From an uncultured Alphaproteobacteria bacterium (GTDB lineage Bacteria > Pseudomonadota > Alphaproteobacteria > HIMB59 > GCA-002718135), in assembly GCA_902590695.1 (NCBI GenBank), contig CACIXR010000002.1:132336-196335 (forward strand): a stretch of DNA of 64,000 bases, in the 5' to 3' direction. Shown here piece after piece: positions 16,828 to 43,422 of the stretch; position 1 is the stretch's first letter, and each line of letters begins with the position of its first letter. A model generated the notes under the pieces. The model was not told the DNA's origin, did not search any database, and saw nothing but the letters and a program-made list of their open reading frames with translations. Made by a program: the position numbers and the translations under genes.

Positions 16828-16839
16828 ATAGGGTTTAAA

Positions 16840-18763: not shown

Positions 18764-18766
18764 TTT

Positions 18767-20209: not shown

Positions 20210-20212
20210 GTT

Positions 20213-21367: not shown

Positions 21368-22525
21368 ATGTTTTCTGAAAACTTAAATAAACTAAAGAAA
21401 AAAATGTCTGAGAACAATATTGATCTCTCAATTATAACTGATGATGACTCGATATATTATTTCACAGGATACCATGACTTCCTTCATATGGATTTTTATC
21501 GACCAACATTATTAGTTGTTTCAAATGATCATAAAACTTATTTAATTACACCTCTTCTTGATGTTTTATTAGTACCAGAATCTTGTCCTGTAGATATGGT
21601 TGAAACATGGAATGATGGTATTGGAAATGAATGGAGAGAATTATTACCTCAAATCATCAATCAGCATAAAAATATTTTTATTGAAAAATTTAAAATTAAC
21701 CCAATGGTTAAGAGTTATTTAGACGAATTACTTCAAGAGCATCCTGGGGATTTAACCAAATTAATAGATAATATAAGAATGATTAAATCTAATCATGAAT
21801 TGAATATAGCTCGTCATGCTGGCGAAGTTGGTATGGCTATGATGGAGGCAGCAAAAAAAACAATTGGCCATAATGTTCCTGAGTATGAGGTTGCACTTGC
21901 ACAATCACAAGCTGGAACAAGAAAAGCTGCAGATCTTTTAAAAGAATTTTATCCTGATAATATCAATATGTCTCCAAATATTCACTTTTTACCTGTTATG
22001 ACATCGGGTCATGATTTACCTAAAACTCACCATCGTGCTTCAACCAAAATTATAAAAAAAGGTGATCCCGTATTCGTATGTTATTGTGGTTCTACAAATT
22101 TCCATAGGTTTAAATTAGGTTTTGACAGAATATTTTGGGTAGAAGAAATTCAATCCGATGAACAAATAAAAGCTTTTGAGACTGCAGTTAAATCTCAAAA
22201 AGCTGCTCTTGAAATTCTTGGCCCTGGAGTAACAGCTGAAGAAGTTCATGCTGCTTATGCAGATACTATACAGTCTGAGGGATACCCTTATCCTACATTT
22301 CGATGTGGAAGAGGTACAGGCTTTAGCTTTTTAGAGGAACCACAATTAGTAGTTGGTAATAAAACAGTACTGGAGCCTGGAATGGTATTTGCCGTTGATG
22401 GCGGGGCAAGTGCAAATAATTTTAGATCACAAGTTGGTGATAGTTTTATTATAACAAAAGATGGATACGAACAAATTACACATCATTCTAAAAATATTGA
22501 TGACTTAATAATTCCACATGGATGA
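21368..22525 (+). CDS. M24 pita-bread-fold protein with creatinase-like N-domain (creatinase / ectoine hydrolase DoeA(EutD)-like rather than a metallopeptidase)
   Basis: 385 aa with two-domain architecture. By eye, the canonical M24B metal-ligand positions are mostly substituted (VFVCYCG; CGRGTGFSFLEEP; AVDGG; VGDSF). Confidence 0.7.
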   Translation: MFSENLNKLKKKMSENNIDLSIITDDDSIYYFTGYHDFLHMDFYRPTLLVVSNDHKTYLITPLLDVLLVPESCPVDMVETWNDGIGNEWRELLPQIINQHKNIFIEKFKINPMVKSYLDELLQEHPGDLTKLIDNIRMIKSNHELNIARHAGEVGMAMMEAAKKTIGHNVPEYEVALAQSQAGTRKAADLLKEFYPDNINMSPNIHFLPVMTSGHDLPKTHHRASTKIIKKGDPVFVCYCGSTNFHRFKLGFDRIFWVEEIQSDEQIKAFETAVKSQKAALEILGPGVTAEEVHAAYADTIQSEGYPYPTFRCGRGTGFSFLEEPQLVVGNKTVLEPGMVFAVDGGASANNFRSQVGDSFIITKDGYEQITHHSKNIDDLIIPHG

Positions 22526-23543
22526 AATCACAGTATTTAACACACATTGCTGCGGTGAAATTGGGGATGTCGTAACTGGAATTAAAGGCTTGAAGTTTAA
22601 TTCACCTGAGGAAGCTTCTAAAAAACTTTTTTTAGATAAAAAATGGAGAAATTTTTTTTTAAATGAACCTCGGGGAGGGGTCTTTAAACATTGTAATATT
22701 ATTTTAGAGCCTTCAAATAAAAATGCAGATGCTGGATTTGTAATCATGGAACCAGAAGATAATCCTCCAATGAGCGGATCAAATGCAATTTGTGTAACGA
22801 CAGTCTTATTAGAAAAAAATATTGTTCAAATGAAATATCCTAAAACCATGCTTACACTTGAAGCTCCCGGTGGTTTAATAAAAGTTGTTGCTGATTGTGA
22901 AAATAAGAAAGTTAAAAGTGTCACTTTAACTAATCTTGCCTGCTTTGCAGATAAAATAGATGTAGATTTAAAGACTAAAAATTATGGTACAATTAAAGTA
23001 AGTACTGCTTTTGGTGGTGACAGTTTTTTAATTTGTAATGCTAGTGATTTTAATCTTAAAATTGAACCAAAGAATGCAAATAAATTTGTAAATGTTGCTA
23101 AAGAATTATTGAAAGAAGCAAACGCATCTATAGGATTTGCACATCCTACTATTAAAGGATTAGACTATCTTTCTTTTTGCCAATTTATTGAACCCTTAAA
23201 AAAAAATAATCAATCATTACTTACAGGATTAAATACAGTTGTTATACGACCTGGAAAACTTGATCGTTCACCATGTGGTACAGGCACTTCAGCAAGATTA
23301 GCAGTAATGAAAGAAAAAAATGAAATACAAATAAATGAAGAATTTATATCAAAGTCTATTATAGGATCTTCATTTAAAGCAAGTATTGAAAAGGAAATTA
23401 AAATTAATAACAAAAATTGTATTATTCCAAAAATAACAGGTAGTGCATTTATTACTGGAAAACAAAGTTTATATATAGATAAGCACGATCCTTTTCCAGA
23501 AGGTTATAGATTAAATGACACATGGCCAGATTCATCAAGTTAA
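22518..23543 (+). CDS. Proline racemase superfamily protein (Ser/Cys variant; hydroxyproline epimerase/dehydratase-like)
   Basis: 341 aa. Contains DRSPCGTGTSARLA, the second catalytic Cys motif. The first catalytic position reads PMSGSNAI, with Ser where Cys is expected. Confidence 0.85.
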   Translation: MDEITVFNTHCCGEIGDVVTGIKGLKFNSPEEASKKLFLDKKWRNFFLNEPRGGVFKHCNIILEPSNKNADAGFVIMEPEDNPPMSGSNAICVTTVLLEKNIVQMKYPKTMLTLEAPGGLIKVVADCENKKVKSVTLTNLACFADKIDVDLKTKNYGTIKVSTAFGGDSFLICNASDFNLKIEPKNANKFVNVAKELLKEANASIGFAHPTIKGLDYLSFCQFIEPLKKNNQSLLTGLNTVVIRPGKLDRSPCGTGTSARLAVMKEKNEIQINEEFISKSIIGSSFKASIEKEIKINNKNCIIPKITGSAFITGKQSLYIDKHDPFPEGYRLNDTWPDSSS

Positions 23544-23619: not shown

Positions 23620-24885
23620 ATGACAAAATTTAATGCCTGGAATGTAATTAAAAACGGTTTAAATGGTCAGTCTTATTGGACTAGACAATGGCGTGATCCA
23701 GAACCAAAAAGTAGTTATGACGTTGTAATAATTGGAGGAGGTTTACACGGTCTTGCCACGGCATATTATTTAGCAAAGAATCATAATATAAAAAATGTAG
23801 CTGTTTTAGAAAAAGGCTGGATTGGTGGAGGAAACGCTGGACGTAATACAACTATTGTAAGATCAAATTATATGATGCCAGGCAACCACGAATTTTATGA
23901 ACATTCTTTAAAGTTATGGGAAAATTTAAGTCACGAATTAAATTATAATGTAATGTTTAGCCAACGAGCTCATGTCTCGTTATTTCATAGCCCTGGTGCT
24001 AAAGATTCAGTTTCACGGATTTATAATATTATGCGACTCCATGGAACTGATGCAGAACTTTGGGATTTAAAAACTTTAAAGAAAAAAATTCCGCATTTAA
24101 ATTATCATAATTCTAGATTTCCAATACTTGGAGCTGCAGTTCAAAAAAGAGCAGGTAATGCAAGACACGATGCAGTTGCATGGGGTTATGCAAGGGCTGC
24201 AGATACATTAGGTGTAGACATTCTTCAAAATTGTGAAGTTACAGGTTTTACAAGAAAGAATGGAAATATTGAAAGTATTCAAACTTCAAGAGGAATTATA
24301 AAAGGAAAGAAAATAGGATTTGCTGTTGCAGGCAATACTTCAGTATTATGGCAAATGGCAGAATTAGGCAACCTGCCAATTGAATCCCATAAACTACAAG
24401 CATTTGTATCTGAGGCTGTTAAACCACTTCTAGACCAGGTTGTTGTTTATGGTGTAGGTGGTGCGCATTTCTATATATCGCAGTCAGATAAAGGAAGCAT
24501 GGTGTTTGGTGGTGATCTTGACTGGTATAAATCATATGCTCAAAGAGGAAATCTTCCTATGGTTCAAGATGTTGCCGAAGCGGCCATGGCAATATTCCCT
24601 TCACTTGGAAGAATAAGATTACTTCGTCATTGGGCAGGTGTTATGGACATGACAATGGACGGATCATTTTTTATTTGTAAAACGCCAATATCTAATCTCT
24701 ATTTAAATGCTGGTTGGAACTATGGTGGTTTCAAAGCTAGTCCTGCATCAGGTTGGTATTTTGCTGACTTAATTGCAAATGAAAGCCCCCATAACTACGT
24801 GCAAAATCATAATTTAGAAAGATTTGAAAAAGGTATCAATATTGATGAACGTGGCGCAGGACCTGATCCAAAATTGCACGGTTAA
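23620..24885 (+). CDS. soxB: Heterotetrameric sarcosine oxidase subunit beta
   Basis: 421 aa. FAD motif VVIIGGGLHGLATAYYLA. Followed by the delta, alpha and gamma subunits in canonical order. Confidence 0.9.
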   Translation: MTKFNAWNVIKNGLNGQSYWTRQWRDPEPKSSYDVVIIGGGLHGLATAYYLAKNHNIKNVAVLEKGWIGGGNAGRNTTIVRSNYMMPGNHEFYEHSLKLWENLSHELNYNVMFSQRAHVSLFHSPGAKDSVSRIYNIMRLHGTDAELWDLKTLKKKIPHLNYHNSRFPILGAAVQKRAGNARHDAVAWGYARAADTLGVDILQNCEVTGFTRKNGNIESIQTSRGIIKGKKIGFAVAGNTSVLWQMAELGNLPIESHKLQAFVSEAVKPLLDQVVVYGVGGAHFYISQSDKGSMVFGGDLDWYKSYAQRGNLPMVQDVAEAAMAIFPSLGRIRLLRHWAGVMDMTMDGSFFICKTPISNLYLNAGWNYGGFKASPASGWYFADLIANESPHNYVQNHNLERFEKGINIDERGAGPDPKLHG

Positions 24886-25170
24886 ATGATTAGAATCAAT
24901 TGTCCTTATTGTGGTGAAAGAGATCATAGTGAATTTAGTTACGGAGGAGATGCAACAATCAATTATCCTTCGTTAGATGCATCAGAGAAAGATTGGACTG
25001 AAGCTATATTTTTCAGAAAAAATATAAAAGGTTTTCAATTTGAAACATGGCATCATTCTAATGGATGTAGAATGTGGTTGGTAGTTGAACGTTCTACTGT
25101 CACTCATGAAATAAAAAGTGTCAAACCATGCCATCCAGATTTACAGAAGGTTGTAGAAAATAATAAATGA
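24886..25170 (+). CDS. soxD: Sarcosine oxidase subunit delta
   Basis: 94 aa. INCPYCGERDHSEFSYGGD and HSNGCRMW form a zinc-ribbon-like motif typical of SoxD. Confidence 0.9.
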   Translation: MIRINCPYCGERDHSEFSYGGDATINYPSLDASEKDWTEAIFFRKNIKGFQFETWHHSNGCRMWLVVERSTVTHEIKSVKPCHPDLQKVVENNK

Positions 25171-28124
25171 AGACAAGAAGAATAGATAACTATGGAAAAA
25201 TTAATAGAGATAAAATTTTATCCTTTAGTTGGGATAAAAAAAATTACAAAGGTTTTGAAGGAGATACTCTAGCATCAGCATTACTTGCAAATAATATTGG
25301 TATAGTTGGTAGAAGTTTTAAATATCATAGACCAAGGGGAATATTTTCTAGTGGAGTCGAGGAATCTGGTGCTTTAGTTACTATTGGTTCAAAAGATAGA
25401 AGAGATCCAAATGTAAGAGCAACAACACAAGAATTATATAATGGTTTAGAAGCAAGTGGTCAAAATGCATTTCCAAATGTAAATTTTGATCTAGCTGGAA
25501 TAAATAATTACTTAGGTAGGTTTTTTGCAGCTGGTTTTTATTATAAAACTTTTATGGGAATACCTCCACTTGAATGGGGTAAAGGAACAGCCATATGGAT
25601 GTTTTTTGAAAAATTTATTAGAAAAGCTGCGGGAATGGGAAGTTCTTCTGGGTTACCTGATCCAGATACTTATGAGCACGCTCATGATTTTTGTGATTTA
25701 ATTGTTGTAGGATCAGGACCTGCTGGTGTTGCAGCTGCAATAGAGGCAGCAGAAAAAAAATTAGATGTTATTTTAGTTGAGCAAGATAGTCTTATTGGAG
25801 GAAATCAACTTGCAGAAAATGATTTTGATAACTCACAAATTAAAAATCAACTTGAAAATCTAGGCATAAAAATAATGACTAGAACTACTGCATTCGGATT
25901 ATATGATAATTGCGTTGTTGGTTTATTAGAGAGAGTAACAGACCATATATCAGCACCAAATGTAAACTTTCCACGCCAAAGATTTTGGACCATTAGAGCA
26001 AAGCATATAATTGTTGGTGCTGGAGCAATTGAAAGACACATTGCATTTAATAATAATGATATTCCTGGTGTAATGACCGTAAATGCATCAAAGCATTATT
26101 TGAATAGATATGGTGTACTCACTGGAAAAAGTATTGTGATAGCTACAAATAATGACTCTGTTTATGAAACAGCACATCAATTATCAGAAGCTGGGGCTAA
26201 TGTAACTGTTCTTGATTCACGAACTAATTTTGAAATTGAGACAAATAAAAGTTTTGAAATTAGAAAAGGGTATGTGCCTTATAATATTAATGGTTCAAAA
26301 AAAATTGATAGTTTAGATATATCAAAAAGTGAAACTATTAATAAATCTGAAACTATAAATTGTGATCAGGTTCTATTATCAGGTGGCTGGTCACCTGCTG
26401 TACATTTGTTATCTCACAGAGGCGTAAAGCCTAAATGGGATTATAAAAATGCTTGTTTTTTACCAAGTGACACAAAAGAAAATATTACAATGGTAGGTTC
26501 TTCTAGAGGTTTATGGAATAAAAATGATTGTATTGCTTCTGGGATAGCTGGAACTACTAGTGCGTTGAACCGTTTAGGTATTTCTAAAACAAATTATTTT
26601 TTCCCAAAACCTGGTGGATGGAAAAATCCAATACAACCACTTTATGAAGTAAAATATAAAAAATCTAGATCAAAAAGTTTTGTAGATTATCAACATGATG
26701 TAACGACAGATGACGTAAGACTCGCACATCGTGAAGGTTTCATTTCAGTAGAGCATCTTAAAAGATACACAACTTTAGGTATGGCAAACGATCAAGGAAA
26801 AATGGGAAATATCATTGGATTATCTTTAATGGCTGAACTTTTAAATAAAGAAATTCCAGAAGTTGGAACTACTGTTTTTAGACCTCCTTATACTCCTGTA
26901 TCTATAGGTGCCTTAAGCGGAAGAAATGTTGGAAAACATTTTAGGCCGTTAAGAGTAACACCAATGCATCAATGGAATATTGATCATGGTGCAAAAATGA
27001 TTGAAGTTGGATTGTATCAAAGACCTTGGTATTATCCAAAAGAAAATGAAACTTTAAGTGACTCTTATATAAGAGAAGCATCAACAGTAAGAAAAACAGT
27101 TGGAATTTGTGATGTAACATCACTAGGCAAAATTGCTATTCAAGGACCAGACTCTAACGAATTTTTAAATAGAATTTATTCGAATGGTTTTTCAAAACTA
27201 CAAGTTGGAAAAGCTAGATATGGTATCATGTTGCGTGATGACGGTATTGTAATGGATGATGGCACATCTTGGAGATTAGCAGAAAATGAATATTTTATGA
27301 CGACGTCTACAGGTGAAGCTGCAAAAGTGATGTCATGGTTAGAAGAATTACTTCAAACTAGATGGACAGATCTTAATGTTAATGTGACTAGTGTTTCTGA
27401 ACAATGGGCAGGCGTATCAGTTGCAGGACCTAAATCTAGAGAAGTTCTCAATAATTGTGTCGATGATTCTTTTGTTATAACTAATAATAACTTGCCTTTT
27501 ATGGGTGTTACTTCAACATTTCTTAAAGGTAATATTCCTTGTAGAATTGCAAGAATTAGTTTCTCAGGTGAATTAGCTTTTGAAGTTTATGTCAAATCAG
27601 ATTTTGCTAATACAATGATGGACTTACTTTGGGAAAATGCAAAAAAATATGATGGATGTTTATATGGATTAGAAGCTTTAGGTGCACTTAGAGTTGAAAA
27701 AGGTCATGTAACAGCTGCTGAGCTTGATGGAAGAGTAACTATTGATGATGCAGGTTTAAGCAAAATGGCATCTACAAAAAAATCATATATTGGAAGCGCA
27801 ATGAGAAAACGAGGAGTGTTAAAAAATAATGATCGAGAAATTCTTGTAGGTTTCTTTCCTGTAAACTTAAAGGAAACTTTTAATGCTGGAACTATTGTCT
27901 GTGAAAAAAATAATATTAAAGGACAGGGTATCGGAAGAATTACCTCAGTTACTTATTCTCCAGAACTTGGACATTGGATTGGATTAGGATTTGTCAAAGG
28001 TGGTTTAGATAAATGGAAAGATACCAATTTAGTTGGGGCAGATCCTGTAAGAAATAAACAAATGAATTTAAAAGTTGTTTCACCACATATGATTGATCCT
28101 AAAGGAGAACGAATGTATGCATAG
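25167..28124 (+). CDS. soxA: Sarcosine oxidase subunit alpha
   Basis: 985 aa. Dinucleotide motif IVVGSGPAGVAAAIEAA and a C-terminal GcvT-like folate-binding domain. Overlaps soxD by 4 nt. Confidence 0.9.
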   Translation: MKTRRIDNYGKINRDKILSFSWDKKNYKGFEGDTLASALLANNIGIVGRSFKYHRPRGIFSSGVEESGALVTIGSKDRRDPNVRATTQELYNGLEASGQNAFPNVNFDLAGINNYLGRFFAAGFYYKTFMGIPPLEWGKGTAIWMFFEKFIRKAAGMGSSSGLPDPDTYEHAHDFCDLIVVGSGPAGVAAAIEAAEKKLDVILVEQDSLIGGNQLAENDFDNSQIKNQLENLGIKIMTRTTAFGLYDNCVVGLLERVTDHISAPNVNFPRQRFWTIRAKHIIVGAGAIERHIAFNNNDIPGVMTVNASKHYLNRYGVLTGKSIVIATNNDSVYETAHQLSEAGANVTVLDSRTNFEIETNKSFEIRKGYVPYNINGSKKIDSLDISKSETINKSETINCDQVLLSGGWSPAVHLLSHRGVKPKWDYKNACFLPSDTKENITMVGSSRGLWNKNDCIASGIAGTTSALNRLGISKTNYFFPKPGGWKNPIQPLYEVKYKKSRSKSFVDYQHDVTTDDVRLAHREGFISVEHLKRYTTLGMANDQGKMGNIIGLSLMAELLNKEIPEVGTTVFRPPYTPVSIGALSGRNVGKHFRPLRVTPMHQWNIDHGAKMIEVGLYQRPWYYPKENETLSDSYIREASTVRKTVGICDVTSLGKIAIQGPDSNEFLNRIYSNGFSKLQVGKARYGIMLRDDGIVMDDGTSWRLAENEYFMTTSTGEAAKVMSWLEELLQTRWTDLNVNVTSVSEQWAGVSVAGPKSREVLNNCVDDSFVITNNNLPFMGVTSTFLKGNIPCRIARISFSGELAFEVYVKSDFANTMMDLLWENAKKYDGCLYGLEALGALRVEKGHVTAAELDGRVTIDDAGLSKMASTKKSYIGSAMRKRGVLKNNDREILVGFFPVNLKETFNAGTIVCEKNNIKGQGIGRITSVTYSPELGHWIGLGFVKGGLDKWKDTNLVGADPVRNKQMNLKVVSPHMIDPKGERMYA

Positions 28125-28680
28125 ACATTCTGCACTAGAAACAATTTATAAGGTTGGAAAATATTCATCAAGTGAGAAACAATCCCTAACATTTAAAGAA
28201 TTAAAAAGTTTAGAAATTTTGCAAATTGCTTGTTGGCCTGACAAAATTGATGAAATGAATAATTTACTATCAAAAGAACTAAAAATTAAAAATATTCCTA
28301 GTTTTAATAAAGGGATAATTTTTGAAAATAAATCATTATGGAGAATGGAACCTTTGAAATGGTGGCTATTTAATAAAGAAATTGAAATAAGTGAGCAAAT
28401 CGCAACAATTTTAGATATGTCTCATGCATTCACAGGTATTGAAATTACAGGAGATAATTCATCATTATTTTTAAATAGACATCTTCCAATTGATTTAAGA
28501 GCTAGGAATTTTCCAGATTTATCTTCTGCTAGCTCAGCTATTCATCATGTCAGTGTTAAGCTATTTAAAATAACTTCCAATAACTACTGTCTATATATAC
28601 CAAGAGGTTTTGCTTTATCAATTTGGGAGATCCTTCTTGAAACAGCGTATCAGTTCGGATACGAAGTATTAGAGAGATAG
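28117..28680 (+). CDS. soxG: Sarcosine oxidase subunit gamma
   Basis: About 187 aa from ATG 28117 (MHRHSALE), overlapping the soxA stop (ATGCATAG). Position and size fit SoxG. The ORF-track start at 28093 is probably an extension. Confidence 0.8.
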   Translation: MHRHSALETIYKVGKYSSSEKQSLTFKELKSLEILQIACWPDKIDEMNNLLSKELKIKNIPSFNKGIIFENKSLWRMEPLKWWLFNKEIEISEQIATILDMSHAFTGIEITGDNSSLFLNRHLPIDLRARNFPDLSSASSAIHHVSVKLFKITSNNYCLYIPRGFALSIWEILLETAYQFGYEVLER

Positions 28681-28754: not shown

Positions 28755-29471
28755 TTAATCATTTGCATCGCCACCTCCGGCACCTTTTGCCCTAGATTCC
28801 TGTGACTCAGGAACAAAAGTTCTAAAAGCTATTTTAGATATTAGATCCCAAGATTTTTTATCAGGATTGATACCCCTGAAGAGCATATTATTTATTTTTG
28901 ATGATGGAATATTAATATCTAATTTTTGTTCATTAAAATTTTTCTTTGTGAGTAAGAGATCAAAATTTCTTTGATAATTTATAGAGATAATTTCTCTATT
29001 AACCCTAATATTTTCATTTGTTATTTGTACATAAATTTTTTGATCTAACAAAAACTGTGAATAGATATTTTTTTTGGCATACTTATAAAGCAAAGGTATT
29101 AGGAATATGGGGTCACTACAATTTTTTAAAGTTAATTTAAAATTATCCCTTTTATTTATTTTTGATACTAAATAATCAATCAATCCTGGACCTATCACCA
29201 AAAAAGATTTATTTTTACAATCAAACTCATCATTTATTTTTGACGGATCTATACTGGCATTAAAAGTGTTGTCTAATTCTTCAATTTTTAATTTTAATAA
29301 TTTGATCCCATCCAAACCAAATACTTCAAGCCATGTTGTAATAAATGCAGCATCCTCATCTGATCCATAAGTGAATCCTAATCCGGAAAAAGCTCGTTGG
29401 GTATTAGTGTAGACTTCATAGTAAGAATAACTCACAGATATTAATATGTACTCATTGTTGCAAAACCCCAT
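28755..29471 (-). CDS. Hypothetical protein, 238 aa (from memory resembles Pfam DUF3726; unverified)
   Basis: Intact ORF. GLGFTYGSDEDAAFITTWLEVFGLDG near the N-terminus and a Gly-rich acidic tail SRAKGAGGGDAND. The ATG start overlaps the upstream 554-aa gene by 31 nt; an alternative GTG start lies just after that gene's stop. Confidence 0.65.
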   Translation of the reverse strand: MGFCNNEYILISVSYSYYEVYTNTQRAFSGLGFTYGSDEDAAFITTWLEVFGLDGIKLLKLKIEELDNTFNASIDPSKINDEFDCKNKSFLVIGPGLIDYLVSKINKRDNFKLTLKNCSDPIFLIPLLYKYAKKNIYSQFLLDQKIYVQITNENIRVNREIISINYQRNFDLLLTKKNFNEQKLDINIPSSKINNMLFRGINPDKKSWDLISKIAFRTFVPESQESRAKGAGGGDAND

Positions 29472-31105
29472 TCATCAACATTTTTATTATTCAGATCTGA
29501 TAAATAAGGGGCTCCAGAAAAAAAACTTACTCTTAACCATCTATCTGACTTAGGGTCATAACGATTAGCTCCAAAAAAAGATAATTTAAATCTTAACATA
29601 TCAATTGGCATTGTTTTTTTATCAAGAACATTATCTTGAACTTCTGAAAAAGGATAATTTTTTAAAGATTGAATTCTCTTAACAATCCCTCTGTATTTTG
29701 GGTGCATTAACAAAAATTCACAAATTAATTGATTTTCATCTACATTTTTTATTTGCTTAAATAAATCATTAACCATTTTTGCAATTCCTAGATTTTGCTC
29801 CAATTCACTTCCTTTTTCGTTATATCTTTCACCTAATCTAGGTTCTAACTTAGCTGCTGAAACATACCAAAATAAATAATTGCTATCTTTATTATTAAAA
29901 TCAATATTTTTTATCCAAGAATATTTATCATTGATTATTTTTTTCAAATCTCCAATAGATTGATTTCCATCAATATCCATTATCTCCTCATCTGACATAT
30001 CTTCTGCTAACTCTTCTGATATTTGAGGATACAATTCAATTAGTTGTACTCTTGCAATTTCCTTAGTATCATTATTAAAATTCGAATCACAATAATCTAA
30101 AATATCTAACCATTTAAATTTTTGAGAAAGATCTATGTCATTAATGTAGGAAATATATTTTTTTAAATCTTCAGTAGTTAATTTATTTTTATTAATTTGG
30201 AATTCATCACTTGTGTTAACTTCTTCAAGATAATTTAGAGCTTTATTCAAAAGTTTTTTATATTTTTCGAAAACTATATTATCTAACTGAATTTGAGAAA
30301 TTTCTTCTAATGTCTTTGTGTACTGTTTCATCCACTTATGTATCAACTTTGGATGTTTTATAATAAAAGGTGCCATACCTAAACCTGTTGAATTACCAAT
30401 ACCTAAATGTTGTTTAATTTTTCTATTTAACTTTACTGCTTTTTTTGGGTTTATTTGCCTTGCTACATGTTCAACTAATTCAATACTAAATTCTCTAATT
30501 AAATAAACTGATAACATTTCTGCTCTAAAGGGTTGATTGAAAACAGTTTTATTTTTTGTGTTAGTAAAATCTGATAATCCAAATTTACCACTACCATAAA
30601 CAGCAGTAGTTCTTAGTAAATACCCAACTTTATTAATTTCGTAAATATCTGGCTGATTACCATTTGAAAGGCAATCGACAACATACTGAAACAGTCTTAC
30701 ACTTTTATTGGCTCTACTAAGAATTAACTCATCTGGAGAATTTCGACCTGATTCTTGAAGGGGAATTGTTTTTTTTAATCTATTAAGATCTTCATTAGAT
30801 AATTTACCAACATGTAATGTGTAGGCTGTATCCCATTTACTAGCGATGACTCTATCACTTCTATCTTTATCATCTAGAAAAGCAGAGAAACATACAAGTG
30901 AATAAGTTTGTTTATTAATAATTATTTCATAAACAACCGTACCGTAACCATCTTTATCTAAATCAAATTTTGATTTATGTATTTTCCAGTTGTCGTTGAT
31001 CAATCTTCTTAACATACTTCTAGAAAAACTAAGGCGAGAAGGATAGCGTGAACCCATTCTTGATAGTTTCATGTAGTTATCGTTTTCTCTTACTTTTTGT
31101 AACAT
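29441..31105 (-). CDS. Hypothetical protein, 554 aa, no recognisable family motif
   Basis: Long uninterrupted ORF in a dense genome. No TM segments or signal peptide are evident. Notable conserved-looking stretches are LSRANKSVRLF, YLLRTTAVYGSGKFGLSDF and HLGIGNSTGLGMAPF. Divergent from the M19 dipeptidase gene across a 54-nt spacer. Confidence 0.75.
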   Translation of the reverse strand: MLQKVRENDNYMKLSRMGSRYPSRLSFSRSMLRRLINDNWKIHKSKFDLDKDGYGTVVYEIIINKQTYSLVCFSAFLDDKDRSDRVIASKWDTAYTLHVGKLSNEDLNRLKKTIPLQESGRNSPDELILSRANKSVRLFQYVVDCLSNGNQPDIYEINKVGYLLRTTAVYGSGKFGLSDFTNTKNKTVFNQPFRAEMLSVYLIREFSIELVEHVARQINPKKAVKLNRKIKQHLGIGNSTGLGMAPFIIKHPKLIHKWMKQYTKTLEEISQIQLDNIVFEKYKKLLNKALNYLEEVNTSDEFQINKNKLTTEDLKKYISYINDIDLSQKFKWLDILDYCDSNFNNDTKEIARVQLIELYPQISEELAEDMSDEEIMDIDGNQSIGDLKKIINDKYSWIKNIDFNNKDSNYLFWYVSAAKLEPRLGERYNEKGSELEQNLGIAKMVNDLFKQIKNVDENQLICEFLLMHPKYRGIVKRIQSLKNYPFSEVQDNVLDKKTMPIDMLRFKLSFFGANRYDPKSDRWLRVSFFSGAPYLSDLNNKNVDEWGFATMSTY

Positions 31106-31159
31106 TTATTAAATATGTATAGTTAATTTTGGTTTTTTCATTAATAGAAGTATTAATCT

Positions 31160-32146
31160 ATGTCAAAAATAAGTGAAGATATACTTCTAATTGATGGATT
31201 GGAATATTGTAACTGGAATAGGGAATTATTTGAAAATGCCCACCAAGCTGGATTAACTGCAATCCATGTGACATTAGTGTATTGGGAAAATACTGACGAG
31301 TCTTTCAAAAAAATAAATGATTGGCACCGTCTTTTTAAAGAGCATCATGACATTATTGCTCACGCAAAAACTACAGAGGATATTTTGGATGCTAAAAAAA
31401 ATAATAAAGTTGCAATTATTTTTGGTTTTCAAAATTCTGCTCCTATTGCCAATGATATATTTTTAATTGAAAAATTTTTTGAAGCAGGTGTGAGATTTAT
31501 GCAACTCACCTATAACAATCAAACTCCGCTTGCTGGAGGATGCTTTGAACCTAAAGACTCAGGTGTATCACGATTTGGAAAAGCTGTTATTGAAGAAATG
31601 AATAGACTTGGAATGATTGTAGATTTAAGTCATGCAGGAAAGCAAACTTGTCTTGATGCTATTGAAGTCTCAAATAAACCTGTGGCAATTTCTCATGCTA
31701 ACCCAAATTTTTTTCATAAATCTAAAAGAAACATTGATACTGATATTTTACAAAAACTTGTTAAAAAAAATGGTTTTATTGGGTTAAGTTTATATCCTTA
31801 CCATCTTAAAAATTTAAGTGATTGTACTATAGAAGATTTTTGTGAAATGATTAAGGAGCTTGTAAACCTTATTGGTGAAGACAATATTGGAATAGGGTCT
31901 GATCTTTGTTTAAATTGGTCTGATGATGTAGTTATGTGGATGAGAAATGGAAAGTGGACCAAAAATATCGACTATGGAGAATCTAAAGATAAAAATCCAA
32001 AATGGCCTAAGTTACCAAGTTGGTATAAGCAACCAAGTGACTTAAATAATTTATTTTATCTAATGTGTGAAAATAATATTCCAGAAAAAGTTTCTACAAA
32101 AATAATAGGTCAGAATTGGTTTAACTTCATGAAAAATCAATTTTAG
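31160..32146 (+). CDS. M19 (renal/membrane-type) dipeptidase family protein
   Basis: 328 aa. AIHVTLV, FMQLTYNNQTPLAGGC, DLSHAG and GIGSD are typical of M19. Confidence 0.85.
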   Translation: MSKISEDILLIDGLEYCNWNRELFENAHQAGLTAIHVTLVYWENTDESFKKINDWHRLFKEHHDIIAHAKTTEDILDAKKNNKVAIIFGFQNSAPIANDIFLIEKFFEAGVRFMQLTYNNQTPLAGGCFEPKDSGVSRFGKAVIEEMNRLGMIVDLSHAGKQTCLDAIEVSNKPVAISHANPNFFHKSKRNIDTDILQKLVKKNGFIGLSLYPYHLKNLSDCTIEDFCEMIKELVNLIGEDNIGIGSDLCLNWSDDVVMWMRNGKWTKNIDYGESKDKNPKWPKLPSWYKQPSDLNNLFYLMCENNIPEKVSTKIIGQNWFNFMKNQF

Positions 32147-33006: not shown

Positions 33007-33071
33007 TTTTTAAATTAAGTTTTGACTATTTGTTTTCATGCAGTTATTCAAGCTTCATTACAAAATATATT

Positions 33072-34160
33072 ATGAATGACACCTCTCAAAGTTTTGTTAA
33101 ATTTGAAAAGATCGATAAAAGTTATGATGGAGAAGTACTAGTAGTAAAAAACTTAAACTTGGATATTGCTAAAGGTGAGTTTGTAACAATGTTGGGTCCA
33201 TCAGGATCAGGTAAAACAACAACTTTGATGATGTTAGCTGGTTTTGAAACACCTACAAATGGTGAAATATTTTTAGATACTAAACCAATTAGTAAAATAC
33301 CGCCCTATGAAAGAGAAATAGGAATGGTATTTCAAAACTATGCTTTATTTCCTCACATGACTGTTGCGGAAAATTTGTCATTTCCGCTAGAAGTGAGAAA
33401 AATTTCAAAACCAGACATTAAAGAAAAAGTGCAGAAAGCACTTGATATGGTTGAGTTAGGTAATTTTGGTACAAGATTTCCAGCTCAATTATCTGGTGGA
33501 CAACAGCAAAGAGTCGCTTTGGCCAGAGCACTTGTATTTGAACCACGCCTAGTATTAATGGATGAGCCTTTAGGTGCACTCGATAAGAATTTACGTGAAC
33601 AGATGCAATACGAAATAAAACATATTCATGATAGGATTGGCATAACAGTTGTCTATGTTACTCATGATCAAAGTGAAGCATTAACAATGTCCAATAGAAT
33701 TGCTGTATTCAATGATGGAGTTGTACAACAATTATCTACACCTGATATCTTGTATGAAAAACCTGAAAATTCTTTTGTTGCAAAATTTATAGGGGAAAAT
33801 AATACACTTAATGGTGTTGTTAGGGAAGTGAATGGATCCTCATGTACTGTTGAATTGGATGGTGGTTTTGGAATGGTGAAAGCATTAAAAATTAATGTGA
33901 ATGAAGTTGGAGAAAAAACCCAACTATCCATAAGACCAGAACGTGTTTCAATTGATAACACAACATCTGACTCCAACAATTTTTCAGGTAAAATTGAAGA
34001 ACTAATTTACCTAGGAGATCACATCAGAGCTAGGCTTGATGTGTGTGGTAATAATGAGTTTATAGTTAAGGTTCCAAATGAAGGAAGTTTTAATCATAAA
34101 GAGGGTGATGAACTTAAATTAAGCTGGAATTCTGAAGATGTTCGAGCATTAGATCTATAA
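33072..34160 (+). CDS. ABC transporter ATP-binding protein (PotA-like, with C-terminal TOBE-like domain)
   Basis: Walker A GPSGSGKTT, signature LSGGQQQRVALARAL and Walker B LVLMDEPLGALD. Start placed at ATG 33072; the ORF-track start at 33030 is an extension. Confidence 0.9.
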   Translation: MNDTSQSFVKFEKIDKSYDGEVLVVKNLNLDIAKGEFVTMLGPSGSGKTTTLMMLAGFETPTNGEIFLDTKPISKIPPYEREIGMVFQNYALFPHMTVAENLSFPLEVRKISKPDIKEKVQKALDMVELGNFGTRFPAQLSGGQQQRVALARALVFEPRLVLMDEPLGALDKNLREQMQYEIKHIHDRIGITVVYVTHDQSEALTMSNRIAVFNDGVVQQLSTPDILYEKPENSFVAKFIGENNTLNGVVREVNGSSCTVELDGGFGMVKALKINVNEVGEKTQLSIRPERVSIDNTTSDSNNFSGKIEELIYLGDHIRARLDVCGNNEFIVKVPNEGSFNHKEGDELKLSWNSEDVRALDL

Positions 34161-34291
34161 TTATACTTTTTTCTTTATATTTAGCCAAAATTTTTTACTT
34201 TTACCCCTTTTTTTTCATTTCACGACATGTTATTACACAATCATTACGGACATAATCTTAAGATTAATTAATAAAAAATAGGAGGATATAT

Positions 34292-35395
34292 ATGTCTAAA
34301 TTTTTAAAAGCCTTCTTATTTGTGTCACTTGTCTTTGCTCCTTTTGCAGCTAGCGCTGTAACGGTTGCATCATGGGGTGGTGCTTATACAGAAAGTCAAC
34401 AAAAAGCTTATGCTGATACATATTCTGATCCTAGCTCAATTGTCTTTGAAAACTACAACGGAGGTTTAGGTGAAGTAAGAGCTCAAGTAGAAAGTGGAAG
34501 TGTTACTTGGGATTTAGTAGATGTATTACCATCTGATGCAATCACAGGTTGTGATGAAGGTTTATTTGAGGATATTTCTTCGGAAATTGCAGCTAATGCA
34601 GCTCCTGGACCAAACGGAGAGTCAATGGCAGAAGATATGGAAAACAATGGTCTTGAATACCACTCTGGTTGGGATTGTTGCGTACCACAAATTTTTTGGA
34701 CTTACGTTGTATTCTATGACCCAGATGCTTTCCCTGGTGAAAAACCAGACAGTATGGCAGACTTTTTTGATACAGAAAAATTTCCTGGAAAAAGAGGTAT
34801 CCACACTTGGGCTGATGGAATTATTCAAAAAGCTTTAGTTGCTGATGGAGTTGCTCCAAACGCAGTACCAACAGTTTTTGCAAAACAAACTGGTGCTATT
34901 GATAGAGCATTTGAAGTTATGGACAGAATCAAGGACGATGTTGTTTTTTGGTCTGCTGGTTCACAACCACTTGAATTAGTTAAAAGTGGTGAAGTTATCA
35001 TGGCAGTTGCATATAACGGTCGTGTTGGTGCAGCAAACTTAGCTGAAGGTGAAAACTTTGAGTATATTTGGGAAGGTCAGGTTCTAGATCAAGAGTATCT
35101 TTGTCTAACTGCTGGTGCTCCTAATAGAGAAGCAGCTCTTGATTTCATGTGGCATGCTTCAACTCCTGAAGCGCAAGCTGAACAAGCTAAATATATTACA
35201 TATGGACCAATGAGAGCTTCTGGTATTCCAATTATTGAAGCAAATGAGCCTTGGGGTCCTGGTGGTGTAGATATTATGCCTCATATGCCTAATACACCAG
35301 AGCGTTTAAAAGTTTCTATCGTTAATGATCCACAGTGGTGGTCAGACTACGGTGCAGAAATTAATGAGCGTTATGCTGCATGGATGGGCAACTAA
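34292..35395 (+). CDS. Periplasmic substrate-binding protein (PotD/PotF-like family)
   Basis: 367 aa. Signal peptide MSKFLKAFLFVSLVFAPFAASA and a strong AGGAGG Shine-Dalgarno upstream. Visibly GC-richer and K/N-poorer than its neighbours. Confidence 0.8.
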   Translation: MSKFLKAFLFVSLVFAPFAASAVTVASWGGAYTESQQKAYADTYSDPSSIVFENYNGGLGEVRAQVESGSVTWDLVDVLPSDAITGCDEGLFEDISSEIAANAAPGPNGESMAEDMENNGLEYHSGWDCCVPQIFWTYVVFYDPDAFPGEKPDSMADFFDTEKFPGKRGIHTWADGIIQKALVADGVAPNAVPTVFAKQTGAIDRAFEVMDRIKDDVVFWSAGSQPLELVKSGEVIMAVAYNGRVGAANLAEGENFEYIWEGQVLDQEYLCLTAGAPNREAALDFMWHASTPEAQAEQAKYITYGPMRASGIPIIEANEPWGPGGVDIMPHMPNTPERLKVSIVNDPQWWSDYGAEINERYAAWMGN

Positions 35396-35428
35396 GCTTG
35401 ATAAAATAAATTTTGTAATTTAATCTAA

Positions 35429-35456
35429 AGGCGAGAATTATCTCGCCTTTTTATTT
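35429..35456 (+). terminator. Intrinsic terminator/attenuator hairpin after the SBP gene
   Basis: AGGCGAGA-ATTA-TCTCGCCT stem-loop followed by TTTTATTT, read directly from the sequence. Confidence 0.65.
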
Positions 35457-36732
35457 GGAGGTTACTATTTCTACAGCTGAATTATTAACTACAGACGGAA
35501 TCCCGCTTAGACAAAGTCTACGCAAAGCTGAAAGAAGAAATAAAATTCGAGCTTTTCTTCTAGTTTTTCCCTTACTTCTTTTTATTATAGTTACTTTTGT
35601 AATGCCAATTGGAGATATGCTTCTTAGAAGTGTTGATGATAGTCAAATTAATTCAGTTTTTCCAAATACTTTTGATGAATACAAAAACTGGGATAAAGGA
35701 GCCGATGAACTACCTCCAGAAGAAGTTTACAAAAGTCTTTTTTTTGAATTAGCGAATGGAGATAAGAGACAGATAGGTAAAGCCTTAACAAGAATGAATT
35801 ATGCTAAATCTGGTTGGAAGAGTTTGATAAAAAAAACCACTAGAGAAATAAAAAAAATCGTAAAAAAAGGGGAAGAACCAGTTTCGTATAAAGAAACATT
35901 TATCAAAATCAATAAGTTTTGGGGAGATCCAACTTATTGGTACTCATTTAATCAAATGGTAAATGATAGATCATCGATTTATTATTGGAATGCTCTGGAT
36001 AGAACATTTGATGAAGATGGAGAAGTTGTTCTTCAAGATGAAAAAAGAAGAATGTATGTTAAAACATGGCTTAGAACTTTTAAGGTAAGTGTCTATGTTA
36101 CAATTTTTTGTTTAATACTTGGTTTTCCAGTTGCTCATCTATTAGCTAATTTACCTCTTAGATACAGTAATCTTTTAATGATTTTTGTATTATTACCCTT
36201 TTGGACTTCCTTACTCGTGAGAACAACCGCATGGATTGTAATGCTTCAACAAAATGGAGTTATAAATGGAATTTTAGTTTGGTTAGGTGTCATAAGTGAT
36301 GATGGCCGAATTCAAATGGTTTATAATGAGACTGGAACTTTAATTGCTATGACTCAGATTTTATTACCATTTATGATTTTACCTTTGTATAGTGTAATGA
36401 GAGTAATTCCAAAAAGTCATATGAGAGCTGCTCAAAACTTAGGTGCTAAACCTGCTACGGCATTTATCCGTGTTTACTTGCCGCAAACTATTCCTGGTAT
36501 AAGTGCTGGTGGTTTATTAGTATTTGTACTTGCTATTGGATATTTTATAACACCTGAATTAGTTGGTGGAAAAGATGGTAAATTAATTGGAAGCTGGATA
36601 GCATATCATTTAAAAACTACACTCAATTGGGGGCTATGCGCTGCCTTGGGAGGTATACTTCTTGGTATAATGCTAATCTTCTATTGGCTTTACAATAAAA
36701 TTGTCGGCATAGACAACATAAAGTTAGGATAA
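35455..36732 (+). CDS. ABC transporter permease (PotB-like) with a roughly 150-aa insertion after TM1
   Basis: 425 aa with EAA-type loop MRAAQNLGAKPATAFIRVYLPQTIPG. The start is uncertain: TTG 35455 overlaps the terminator, and an in-frame ATT at 35467 sits 5 nt after GGAGG. Confidence 0.8.
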   Translation: MEVTISTAELLTTDGIPLRQSLRKAERRNKIRAFLLVFPLLLFIIVTFVMPIGDMLLRSVDDSQINSVFPNTFDEYKNWDKGADELPPEEVYKSLFFELANGDKRQIGKALTRMNYAKSGWKSLIKKTTREIKKIVKKGEEPVSYKETFIKINKFWGDPTYWYSFNQMVNDRSSIYYWNALDRTFDEDGEVVLQDEKRRMYVKTWLRTFKVSVYVTIFCLILGFPVAHLLANLPLRYSNLLMIFVLLPFWTSLLVRTTAWIVMLQQNGVINGILVWLGVISDDGRIQMVYNETGTLIAMTQILLPFMILPLYSVMRVIPKSHMRAAQNLGAKPATAFIRVYLPQTIPGISAGGLLVFVLAIGYFITPELVGGKDGKLIGSWIAYHLKTTLNWGLCAALGGILLGIMLIFYWLYNKIVGIDNIKLG

Positions 36733-36735
36733 CAA

Positions 36736-37632
36736 ATGGCTTTACCAAGTTACGCAACTCCAGTCCAAAGAACATACTATTACTTTTATTTATTTTTTTG
36801 TGCTGTAGTTTTCTTCTTTTTAATAGCACCATTATTTGCAATTATTCCAATATCTTTCAGTGTTTCTCCTTTTATGGTTTTTACAGAAGGAATGCTGGCG
36901 TGGCCTCCTGATCCTGAAGCTTGGTCGATAAGATGGTATAAAAATATGATTGGTGATTGTAGTGCTGATGTTGTTTCTTCTACAGTTCCATGTTCTACAA
37001 AGTGGATGGTTGGTACAGTAAATAGTTTTTATATTGGTATTATCGCAACTGTTATTGCTACAGCTTTAGGAACACTGGCAGCTCTTGGTTTAAGTAGACC
37101 ACATATGCCATATAAAGGTTTGATAATGGCAATATTAATTTCACCAATGATTGTTCCACTAATTATAACAGCTGCAGGAATGTTCTTCTTCTATGCAAGA
37201 ATAAATCTTGTTTATACTTTCACAGGTGTAATTTTTGCACACGTTGCACTTGCTACACCCTTTGTAGTAATTACAGTAACGGCAACATTAGTTGGTTTTG
37301 ATATGAATATGGTAAAAGCAGCACAGAGCTTAGGCGCTAAACCAATGAGAACATTTTTTAAAGTCATCATGCCTTTGATTTTACCAGGTATTATATCAGG
37401 AGCTTTATTTGCTTTTATTACATCTTTTGATGAAGTTGTTATAGTTATGTTTATGGCAAGTATTGATCAACTAACAATTCCAAAACAAATGTGGGCCGGA
37501 ATACGACAAGAAATTAGCCCTGTTATTTTATGTATGGCTACTTGTTTAGTACTTCTTTCTATATTCTTATTAACTACAGTTGAGCTACTTAGAAGAAGGT
37601 CTGAAAAACTTAGAGGTATTAAAGCTCGATAG
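36736..37632 (+). CDS. ABC transporter permease (PotC-like)
   Basis: 298 aa with EAA loop VKAAQSLGAKPMRTFFKVIMPLILPG. Confidence 0.85.
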   Translation: MALPSYATPVQRTYYYFYLFFCAVVFFFLIAPLFAIIPISFSVSPFMVFTEGMLAWPPDPEAWSIRWYKNMIGDCSADVVSSTVPCSTKWMVGTVNSFYIGIIATVIATALGTLAALGLSRPHMPYKGLIMAILISPMIVPLIITAAGMFFFYARINLVYTFTGVIFAHVALATPFVVITVTATLVGFDMNMVKAAQSLGAKPMRTFFKVIMPLILPGIISGALFAFITSFDEVVIVMFMASIDQLTIPKQMWAGIRQEISPVILCMATCLVLLSIFLLTTVELLRRRSEKLRGIKAR

Positions 37633-37636
37633 AATA

Positions 37637-38866
37637 GTGAAGAACATTGCTGTTATAGGTGCTGGTATAGTTGGTATATGTAGTGCATATTTTTTAAAAA
37701 AATCTGGATTTAATGTAACTTTAATTGACAGGGAAAAGCCTGGCTCAATGACAAGTTTTGGGCATGCTTGTACTTTTGCAGACTATGCAAATGTTCCTGT
37801 AAATTATCCTGGATTGATTTGGGATATACCATCAATGCTCTTAAGAAAAGATGGACCTTTGGCAGTTGATTTTTTTTATATTTTAAAGAACTTGCCTTGG
37901 GCAATAAGTTTTTTAAAAAACTGTAAAAAAGAAAAAGTTAATGAAATAGCAAACTCTCTCACCAACCTATTAAAACACTCACAAATATCTTACGATGAAA
38001 TCTTTCAAGATGTAAATGTAAAAGAATATATTAGCTATGAAGAAAATCTTTATCTTTTTGATTCAAAAAAATCTTATGAAAATTATGAATATGCAAACAT
38101 TATTAGAAAAAATAATAACGTTAGAGTAAGAAATTTAAATAAAGATGAAGTTAAAGAATTAGAACCAAATTTAGCTGATGTTTATTATTCTGGTCAAGTC
38201 TTTACTGGATCGAGACACACAACAAACCCATTAGCAATAAGTAATAAAATTTTTAAAAAGTTTTTAGAATTAGGTGGTATTTATGTAAATCAAAATATAA
38301 AAAATTTAACGCAGAAAGAAAAAAATATTGAATTATTTTTAGAAAATAAAAAACTTTATTTTGATAAAATAATCGTAAGTGCTGGTGCTTGGTCCAATCA
38401 AATTGCAAATAAACTTGGAGATAAATTCCCTCTTGATACCGAAAGAGGATATCACCTTTTATTTGAAACTGATGAGAAATTAATAAATCGTCCTGTTGCT
38501 TGGTCTGAATCTGGATTTTACTTAATACAAATTCATGATGGTATAAGAGCTGCGGGCACAGTTGAAATAGCAGGTTTAAATAAACCACCTAATAAAAAAC
38601 GTCTTGAAATGATAGAAAGACAATCAAGAAAGGTTTTGCCCCAATTGAAAGAAGTAAGATCAACATGGATGGGTAGAAGACCTACTTTACCAGACTCATT
38701 ACCAGTTATTGGAAAGTCTCGCAAAAATAATAATGTTATTTATGCATTTGGACATCAACATATTGGCTGGACTTTAGGAGCTGTTACGGGAAAAATTATT
38801 GATAGTTTATCAAAAGATCAACTGCCAAATATAGACATTAGTGATTATTCTCCTAGTCGATTTTAA
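37637..38866 (+). CDS. FAD-dependent oxidoreductase (D-amino-acid dehydrogenase DadA-like)
   Basis: N-terminal KNIAVIGAGIVGICSAYFL. Start moved to GTG 37637, just after the potC-like stop; the ORF-track start at 37580 overlaps the permease gene. Confidence 0.8.
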   Translation: MKNIAVIGAGIVGICSAYFLKKSGFNVTLIDREKPGSMTSFGHACTFADYANVPVNYPGLIWDIPSMLLRKDGPLAVDFFYILKNLPWAISFLKNCKKEKVNEIANSLTNLLKHSQISYDEIFQDVNVKEYISYEENLYLFDSKKSYENYEYANIIRKNNNVRVRNLNKDEVKELEPNLADVYYSGQVFTGSRHTTNPLAISNKIFKKFLELGGIYVNQNIKNLTQKEKNIELFLENKKLYFDKIIVSAGAWSNQIANKLGDKFPLDTERGYHLLFETDEKLINRPVAWSESGFYLIQIHDGIRAAGTVEIAGLNKPPNKKRLEMIERQSRKVLPQLKEVRSTWMGRRPTLPDSLPVIGKSRKNNNVIYAFGHQHIGWTLGAVTGKIIDSLSKDQLPNIDISDYSPSRF

Positions 38867-43380: not shown

Positions 43381-43409
43381 TCCAGCACTTTAAAAGTGCT
43401 GGATTTTTT
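43381..43409 (+). terminator. Rho-independent terminator after the TRAP SBP gene
   Basis: TCCAGCAC-TTTAAAA-GTGCTGGA followed by TTTTTT, read directly from the sequence. Confidence 0.75.
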
Positions 43410-43422
43410 CGAGGCTAACTTA

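Follow-up and report, generated by a model that had tools for sequence, protein, structure and literature searches.

Probable homB, homA and homC genes of the homarine catabolic operon in a 64-kb stretch of SAR11 DNA

The DNA analyzed here (the window) is a stretch of 64,000 nucleotides (nt) from an uncultured Alphaproteobacteria bacterium (HIMB59; GCA-002718135), taken from assembly GCA_902590695.1 (contig CACIXR010000002.1, positions 132,336 to 196,335, forward strand). It contains a large and a small gene on the same strand, divergent from the gene for an M19-family amidohydrolase. The original prediction, made from the sequence alone, had described the first two as an orphan module. The three genes are very probably homB, homA and homC, the conserved core of the homarine (N-methylpicolinate) catabolic operon, in its SAR11 copy. 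The role of the module is already known from the description of that operon (Ferrer-Gonzalez et al., Nat Microbiol 2026; PMC13236597), and the present work extends that discovery.

Gene organization and selection

The genes under study and the spacer between them are as follows.

29441..31105, minus strand: large gene, assigned homB; open reading frame (ORF) of 554 amino acids (aa), 1,665 nt, ATG start
28755..29471, minus strand: small gene, assigned homA; ORF of 238 aa from the ATG, 717 nt, DUF3726
31160..32146, plus strand: M19-family amidohydrolase gene, assigned homC; 328 aa, divergent from the large gene
31106..31159: divergent intergenic spacer between homB and homC, 54 nt; presumed shared promoter region

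Both ORFs are intact and co-oriented, and the overlap of 31 nt from the ATG start of the small gene, the abutting arrangement from its GTG start and the 54-nt spacer to the M19 gene were all as predicted. The in-frame GTG (at 29435) is residue 13 of the small protein, starts 5 nt past the TAA stop of the large gene and gives a product of 226 aa. The ATG and the GTG were both kept in 41 of 41 gap-free copies from SAR11 single-cell genomes. In distant SAR11-like lineages the small gene has only a GTG-type start ('VSYSYYEV'), and homology of the small protein to the fusions described below, to Pfam and to Ldh_2 enzymes begins at residues 12-16. For these two reasons the true start is ambiguous, and the GTG appears at least as likely as the ATG. 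A consensus promoter scan of the spacer gave nothing above chance in this AT-rich DNA, and a terminator scan was likewise uninformative.

The ratio of nonsynonymous to synonymous substitutions (dN/dS), calculated against copies 84-93% identical, lay at 0.06-0.10 in the large gene and at 0.19-0.23 in the small one. Both are real genes constrained by purifying selection, as had been supposed. The statement that they are the only sizeable genes in the window with no recognized motif was too broad: a 367-aa ORF at 14969..16072 also had no Pfam match. Lists of direct homologs were dominated by near-identical SAR11 copies, and diversity was drawn from a representative library (1.8 billion proteins) and a metagenome scan. 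The large protein matched 1,275 representative clusters of the library at E<=1e-3.

Pairing and gene neighborhood

Large-protein homologs of 760-960 aa are common, and those near 800 aa carry a C-terminal DUF3726 domain; an 804-aa protein of Arcobacter is one such natural fusion. The whole length of the window's small protein can be aligned with the C-terminal part of these ~800-aa fusions. For the neighborhood survey, ORFs were called and all neighbors clustered at 85 loci (80 metagenome contigs, four further contigs and the window). The small gene lay directly 3' of the large gene in 67 of the 68 loci that could be evaluated, the usual gap being -4 to +9 nt, and an M19 gene was present in 68 of the 71 loci carrying the large gene. 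The survey thus found the conserved pairing that had been proposed as a check. The M19 gene was directly upstream on the same strand in 46 loci and divergent, the SAR11-type arrangement, in 12.

The natural fusions, the near-universal adjacency, the translational coupling and a model of the two proteins as one chain (predicted template modelling score, pTM, 0.86) establish the large and small proteins as an obligate functional pair, in line with the original prediction. The unit is neither an orphan nor limited to two genes: at least three genes (M19, large and small) are conserved together, as the core of a larger operon.

Recurrent neighbors were an aldehyde dehydrogenase, a BCCT or a PotABCD-like ATP-binding cassette (ABC) transporter, RidA, and a LysR, IclR or GntR regulator, together with sox-type genes in several lineages, a DoeA-like M24 hydrolase and full-length Ldh_2 enzymes. 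An operon with LysR, aldehyde dehydrogenase, M19, BCCT, large and small genes, and with RidA next to either the small gene or the aldehyde dehydrogenase gene, was found in Caballeronia (L053), Vibrio (L137), Pseudomonas (L138), Arcobacter (L051) and Phaeobacter (L135). On pSymB of S. meliloti the order was IclR, large, small, M19, ABC transporter and aminotransferase.

Two of these operons lie on plasmids. That of Pseudomonas sp. MPC6 (plasmid pMPC6-328K) is inside a conjugative-plasmid island that has the look of a catabolic island for several betaines. Also encoded there are a Rieske oxygenase, FAD (flavin adenine dinucleotide) oxidoreductases, a three-component FAD/2Fe-2S oxidase accompanied by RidA, and a pair of MR/MLE-family enzymes together with a second BCCT. 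That of Phaeobacter inhibens (plasmid pP10_a, 262 kb) directly adjoins dmdA, dmdB-like, dmdD and dmdC-like genes, for demethylation of dimethylsulfoniopropionate (DMSP).

Assignment to the homarine operon

A known pathway role was found for the module: the operon homABCDER (with homT), for homarine catabolism, was published in March 2026 (PMC13236597). In Cobetia (ACFLL8_11490-11520) its order is homE, homA, homB, homT (a glycine-betaine-type transporter), homC (a peptidase), homD (an aldehyde dehydrogenase) and homR, and the R. pomeroyi genes are SPO3188-3192, of which SPO3188 is annotated as hypothetical (PMC13236597). The homA gene is ~700 nt and homB ~1,700 nt long; the two are adjacent in 97.7% of 11,755 genomes, and homE is optional and found beside homA or beside homD (PMC13236597). 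All 120 Pelagibacter genomes have the operon, with homE absent, and hom genes otherwise occur in SAR116, Rhodobacterales, Vibrionales and non-marine genomes (PMC13236597).

The operon surveyed here was reconstructed independently of the published order. Its order of RidA, small, large, BCCT, M19, aldehyde dehydrogenase and LysR genes (loci L053, L082, L137, L138 and L051) agrees gene for gene with homE-A-B-T-C-D-R of Cobetia, and the positions of RidA are the two published positions of homE. Homologs of the window proteins span the same taxa (SAR11, SAR116, Rhodobacterales, Vibrionales and non-marine bacteria). Because operon order, gene sizes, adjacency, the absence of homE and taxonomic distribution all match the published description, the large protein is very probably HomB, the small protein HomA and the M19 protein HomC.

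Transposon or deletion mutants of homB, homC, homD and homR in Cobetia and Ruegeria did not grow on homarine (PMC13236597). Carbon and nitrogen of labelled homarine flowed into N-methylglutamate, whose N-methyl group had stayed intact, and a sox-like N-methylglutamate dehydrogenase then led on to glutamate (PMC13236597). The homarine-induced sox-like genes are the mgd genes, and intermediates of formulae C7H9NO5, C6H9NO4 and C6H9NO3 were observed (PMC13236597). In situ, homB transcripts tracked homarine concentration and were attributed to Pelagibacter among other taxa (PMC13236597).

The match to the hom operon supports the earlier expectation, drawn from linkage to the M19 and sox-type genes, of a role in catabolism of small nitrogen compounds rather than in mobility or defense. 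The substrates then suggested (N-methyl and guanidino osmolytes, and dipeptides) were close in spirit, and the reported one is the N-methylpyridinium betaine homarine.

Five other routes were considered and dropped, since each left part of the seven-gene operon unexplained: a creatinine/creatine route (from the M24 and sox context); a Puu-like gamma-glutamyl-polyamine route with M19 in place of PuuD (from the PotABCD, DAO, aldehyde dehydrogenase and glutamine-synthetase-like genes in the window); an ectoine-like route (from the DoeA-like M24, aminotransferase and aldehyde dehydrogenase genes); (hydroxy)proline betaine catabolism (from the Pseudomonas island); and a new DMSP or quaternary-amine lyase.

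The large protein, HomB

The single sequence of the large protein had no match in Pfam or NCBIfam, and no PDB chain was found by sequence or with a profile of 62 sequences. Even with a cutoff of E<=1, no Pfam family recurred consistently among 62 diverse homologs. The AlphaFold2 model was of high confidence (predicted local distance difference test, pLDDT, 94.7; pTM 0.94), and Foldseek searches with it gave no PDB neighbor (best E=0.25, template modelling score <=0.13).

About 25 residues, rich in Arg, Trp, Tyr and Asn, are invariant among 43 sequences of 22-35% identity, and they include a GxGNxxGxG loop. Invariant columns in sets of 43-62 diverse homologs include R131, N133, S135, R137, Y162, R165, T167, G235, G237 and N238; R204, W413, R423 and R505 are further invariant residues. 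The motif blocks of the large protein quoted in the original prediction are present and coincide with invariant columns. The catalytic-looking invariant residues are kept from SAR11 to the most distant fusions.

A second class of fusions (P0298, P0310 and ~30 other representatives, 840-960 aa) has a longer C-terminal extension, which has no DUF3726 match in Pfam and a different conserved tail, LVPxxxExxLRPxxxDPLKxF. One such gene (L052) is still beside M19, ABC transporter and aldehyde dehydrogenase genes.

The small protein, HomA

The small protein belongs to DUF3726 (PF12525, E=1.2e-10, residues 16-78, 41.6 bits against a cutoff of 22.1), as had been suggested in the original prediction, and the family was matched by 27 of 27 diverse homologs. 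Neither the protein nor these homologs matched Ldh_2 in Pfam; the small protein has 238 aa, against ~340 aa for a full Ldh_2 enzyme. No match was found in the PDB by single sequence or profile, and literature searches for DUF3726, PF12525 and 2I5G (see below) yielded nothing relevant.

For structure prediction the small protein was modelled head to tail in one chain with the large protein, which is the arrangement of the natural fusions. In this model its core had block-mean pLDDT values of ~76-93, with one disordered insert. The ten best Foldseek matches of this part were all Ldh_2 structures (probability 0.91-1.0), including the DpkA-type imine reductase 1WTJ. By hhalign, the N-terminal 64 residues/columns were in register with module-adjacent Ldh_2 enzymes from other loci (E=1.3e-4), and the catalytic S-H-G loop of Ldh_2 fell in a 5-residue deletion of the small protein. 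HomA is a truncated Ldh_2-like domain that descends from NAD(P)H-dependent enzymes of this family, and no flavin domain could be detected in it. The profile and structure searches that had been proposed thus placed the small protein and left the large one with no match in Pfam, NCBIfam, the PDB or Foldseek.

The extreme C terminus of the family is conserved as VPxSxxSRxxGAGAGxxD(N/T)D-COOH. This tail (window positions 28755..28790) is predicted to be disordered, is kept across very divergent small proteins and the ~800-aa fusions, and could reach into the active site of a partner.

Full-length Ldh_2 dehydrogenases (332-360 aa) adjoin the module in eight loci (L074, L084, L094, L097, L098, L102, L122 and L126) and might supply an imine-reductase activity lost by the truncated HomA. 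A DoeA-like M24 hydrolase (ectoine-hydrolase-like, 467 bits against a cutoff of 613) adjoins the homA end in loci L057-L063 and L072-L083, from sister SAR11-like and other marine lineages; it is not at that position in the window.

The authors of the hom study proposed that HomA and HomB act like TgnA and TgnB, as a two-component system in which one subunit would supply flavin and the other would activate oxygen to open the ring oxidatively, citing FAD-binding motifs found in HomA with InterProScan and the analogy with trigonelline (PMC13236597). The intermediate C7H9NO5 is more oxygenated than homarine, which calls for an oxidation or oxygenation step, and the GxGNxxGxG loop and invariant arginines of HomB could bind a nucleotide or flavin phosphate. 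In our searches, against this proposal, no flavin reductase or flavin-dependent oxygenase domain was found by Pfam or NCBIfam in the window proteins or in the 27 HomA and 62 HomB homologs; the HomA homologs matched only DUF3726, with no flavin, FAD or reductase family at E<=1. Foldseek likewise retrieved no flavoenzyme for either protein, and single-chain fusions are unlike two-component systems that pass free reduced flavin between separate proteins. A flavin system of this type is possible and, on balance, doubtful.

The M19 protein, HomC

The M19 protein matched Peptidase_M19 in Pfam (E=4.9e-73, 246.5 bits). Its closest solved relative is 2I5G (E=2.5e-60), which we take to be the PA5396-type protein of P. 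aeruginosa, and canonical renal-type dipeptidases align only from about residue 50. In DPEP1 and Sco3058 the N-terminal H-x-D motif provides ligands of the binuclear zinc site. In all 64 members of the M19 subfamily examined this motif is replaced by IDGL(E/Q)YxNW, and the DLSH, SHxxP and GxD motifs are kept.

Clusters of the dgc type (dimethylglycine catabolism), that of Ralstonia for example, encode proteins ~70% identical to 2I5G beside a V4R-domain protein, and the same partner was seen again in Paracoccus. In the published dgc clusters of P. aeruginosa and V. natriegens this position is occupied by a dipeptidase gene, PA5396, together with a gene described as hypothetical. A relationship of the V4R partner to HomA or HomB was rejected (hhalign probabilities of 0.1% and 2%). 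At loci L139 and L140 the 2I5G-related M19 proteins also have no H-x-D ligands.

HomA and HomB could also be non-catalytic and serve the M19 enzyme, which would then carry out the chemistry, as scaffolding, accessory or substrate-delivery subunits. Neither has a recognizable cofactor or catalytic motif, HomA is without the catalytic His loop found in the Ldh_2 enzymes from which it descends, translational coupling links the genes to M19, and the PA5396-type M19 of dgc operons likewise always has a small, non-enzymatic-looking V4R partner; the homB knockout phenotype would fit an essential accessory subunit equally well. Such a role is nevertheless very unlikely. A 554-aa protein with ~25 polar or aromatic residues invariant across 23-60% identity, and with a dN/dS below 0.1, looks more like one with an active site than like a scaffold. 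Opening an aromatic pyridinium ring is beyond an amidohydrolase on its own, and this M19 protein is itself without half of the canonical binuclear metal site.

The SAR11 variant and neighboring genes

The following genes of the window are candidate parts of the SAR11 variant of the operon.

23620..28680, plus strand: genes for beta, delta, alpha and gamma subunits of a heterotetrameric sarcosine-oxidase-family enzyme, convergent with homA; candidate mgdABCD
33030..37632, plus strand: PotABCD-like ABC transporter (ATPase, SBP_bac_8 binding protein at 34292..35395 and two permeases); PotA subfamily, 376 bits
38863..40296, minus strand: betaine-aldehyde-dehydrogenase (BADH)-like aldehyde dehydrogenase (NCBIfam), 477 aa, ~7.8 kb from the core

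In NCBIfam the beta and alpha subunits scored above cutoff, and delta (104 against 116.5 bits) and gamma (49 against 144 bits) below it. Given the published mgd identity of the homarine-induced sox-like genes (PMC13236597), these genes are likely candidates for an N-methylglutamate dehydrogenase acting on the pathway product, although the NCBIfam models do not separate sox from mgd. The PotABCD-like type of transporter was found beside the module in ~20 of the 85 loci and on pSymB of S. meliloti, and is a candidate importer of the pathway substrate where the BCCT HomT is absent. In the window it flanks the core together with an EamA exporter-type gene.

A tblastn search of the 64-kb window gave no ortholog of HomD, RidA, BCCT or LysR. 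The BADH-like aldehyde dehydrogenase has just 33-35% identity with the HomD-type enzymes, no better than an unrelated succinate-semialdehyde dehydrogenase (SSADH); the HomD-type enzymes are 58-90% identical among themselves. Copies 68-80% identical to the BADH-like enzyme have kept their synteny with the module in other oligotrophic lineages (L061 and L098), which suggests a non-orthologous replacement of HomD.

These differences bear on the possibility that the SAR11 homA-B-C core acts on a substrate related to homarine rather than on homarine, for example a polyamine-derived compound or a different betaine of the N-methylpyridinium or N-heterocyclic type. The absence of HomD, HomE, HomT and HomR orthologs, the linkage to a PotABCD-like transporter, a DAO-type oxidase and the BADH-like aldehyde dehydrogenase, the low sequence identity to the organisms tested, the DoeA-like M24 hydrolase added in sister lineages and the aminotransferase coupled to the core in S. 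meliloti would all fit such a substrate. The Pelagibacter-attributed homB transcripts that track homarine, and the presence of the operon in all 120 Pelagibacter genomes (PMC13236597), argue for homarine itself. So do the HomB residues kept from SAR11 to the most distant fusions and the adjacent sox/mgd-type genes, which fit N-methylglutamate as the product. A different substrate is judged unlikely.

Other genes of the window were recorded as follows. Positions 13474..23543 hold a run resembling an ectoine/hydroxyectoine-type catabolic cluster: SSADH, the 367-aa ORF, arylmalonate-decarboxylase-like (EutA-like), pyridoxal-phosphate threonine-dehydratase-like and ornithine-cyclodeaminase-like genes, then a second PALP protein, an M20 peptidase, a creatinase/M24 gene and a proline-racemase-family gene. 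At 37580..40296 a D-amino-acid-dehydrogenase-like FAD oxidase gene overlaps the BADH-like aldehyde dehydrogenase gene convergently. Beyond a TRAP transporter, a glutamine-synthetase-family gene (43396..44781) scored as GlnA, type III or gamma-glutamylputrescine-synthetase-like, all below cutoff. The FAD oxidase, the BADH-like enzyme, the glutamine-synthetase-family gene and the PotABCD-like system together resemble a Puu-type gamma-glutamyl-amine route.

Proposed route from homarine to glutamate

Catabolism in the window would proceed in four steps. In step 1, a HomB-HomA heterodimer would open the pyridinium ring. HomB, for which the PDB offers no structural relative and which combines the GxGNxxGxG loop with numerous invariant Arg, Trp and Tyr residues, would be the catalytic subunit, and HomA a cofactor-binding or structural subunit, with the fold of Ldh_2 imine/2-oxoacid reductases and no catalytic His loop. 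In step 2, HomC, whose family is that of the classical "dehydropeptidase", would hydrolyse an N-acyl, probably N-formyl, dehydroamino-acid intermediate and so release the one carbon lost between homarine (seven carbons) and N-methylglutamate (six carbons). The reported formulae would fit an N-formyl-N-methyl-dehydroglutamate series, with ring carbon 6 leaving as formate through the amidohydrolase. In step 3, an aldehyde dehydrogenase, in SAR11 one not orthologous to HomD, would oxidise the semialdehyde; the imine/enamine would undergo either reduction to N-methylglutamate or RidA-assisted hydrolysis. In step 4, the adjacent sox/mgd-type enzyme would demethylate N-methylglutamate to glutamate.

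As to the chemistry, a further reading, judged less likely than not, is that HomB would have an undescribed enzyme fold and, with a catalytically degenerate Ldh_2-derived HomA, would open the N-methylpyridinium ring with no canonical flavin oxygenase. The ring might first be attacked by hydride chemistry of the NAD(P)H type and then cleaved, either hydrolytically or oxidatively. The M19 protein, with half a metal site, would be the deformylase, and SAR11 would have a minimal three-gene version complemented by a non-orthologous aldehyde dehydrogenase and an ABC importer.

Several points weigh against the assignment to homarine catabolism and against the proposed steps. The equivalence of the large and small proteins to HomB (SPO3189, ACFLL8_11500) and HomA (SPO3188, ACFLL8_11495) is very probable rather than certain, and was drawn from architecture, sizes, distribution and annotation. 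The large protein is only ~28-45% identical to its non-SAR11 homologs, and the organisms tested are distant from SAR11. With no true HomD, HomE, HomT or HomR ortholog and with a PotABCD-like transporter, the substrate range in SAR11 could differ. The individual steps were inferred from the reported formulae C7H9NO5, C6H9NO4 and C6H9NO3, no report of a biochemical activity of HomA, HomB or HomC was found in the searchable literature, and the authors' FAD-binding motif in HomA was not reproduced with Pfam over the 27 homologs.

Marine phytoplankton release homarine as one of their most abundant small nitrogen metabolites, and no marine heterotroph is more abundant than SAR11; the identification of homB and homA places the window in a known and ecologically important flux of carbon and nitrogen. 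The remaining interest lies in the enzymology of a ring-opening pair with no relatives of known chemistry and in the reduced SAR11 variant of the operon. The published flavin hypothesis gets no support from the present domain and fold searches. These observations are leads for biochemists, and an extension rather than a new discovery.

Comparison with known systems

The TgnAB system of Acinetobacter baylyi acts on trigonelline, an isomeric N-methylpyridinium betaine, and shares with the Hom system a two-protein ring opening through which the N-methyl group is kept, followed by a hydrolase and an aldehyde dehydrogenase. It differs in that HomA and HomB showed no sequence, domain or fold similarity to flavin reductases or flavin monooxygenases in our searches, and in that the Hom proteins occur as natural fusions.

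Ldh_2 enzymes (PF02615) include DpkA, a delta1-piperideine-2-carboxylate / N-methyl-L-amino-acid dehydrogenase (1WTJ), and their imine-reductase chemistry would suit the formation of N-methylglutamate. The core of the small protein superposes on them and its N-terminal helices are in register. Unlike these stand-alone dehydrogenases it is ~100 residues shorter, has a disordered insert and the GAGAGxxDND tail, has no Pfam Ldh_2 match and no S-H-G loop, and is always partnered or fused with HomB.

The PA5396/2I5G-type M19 proteins of dgc operons belong to the same subfamily as HomC, with an IDGL..WNRELFE N terminus that has no H-x-D ligands, and they too are found within N-methyl-amine catabolic clusters, always with a partner protein. 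In the dgc operons, however, the partner is a V4R-domain protein of ~177 aa and the neighbors are dgcAB and etf, not homAB.

Compared with the published hom operon, homC in the window is divergent rather than co-directional, orthologs of homD, homE, homT and homR are missing, and the core is flanked by the PotABCD-like transporter and the EamA exporter-type gene. Shared with that operon are the adjacent small and large genes, both annotated as hypothetical (~700 and ~1,700 nt, against 717 and 1,665 nt in the window), the nearby peptidase gene and the associated sox/mgd-type genes; an aldehyde dehydrogenase gene also lies nearby, outside the HomD-type group. The seven-gene order of the homologs in other taxa is identical, and the taxonomic spread is the same, including SAR11 with no homE.

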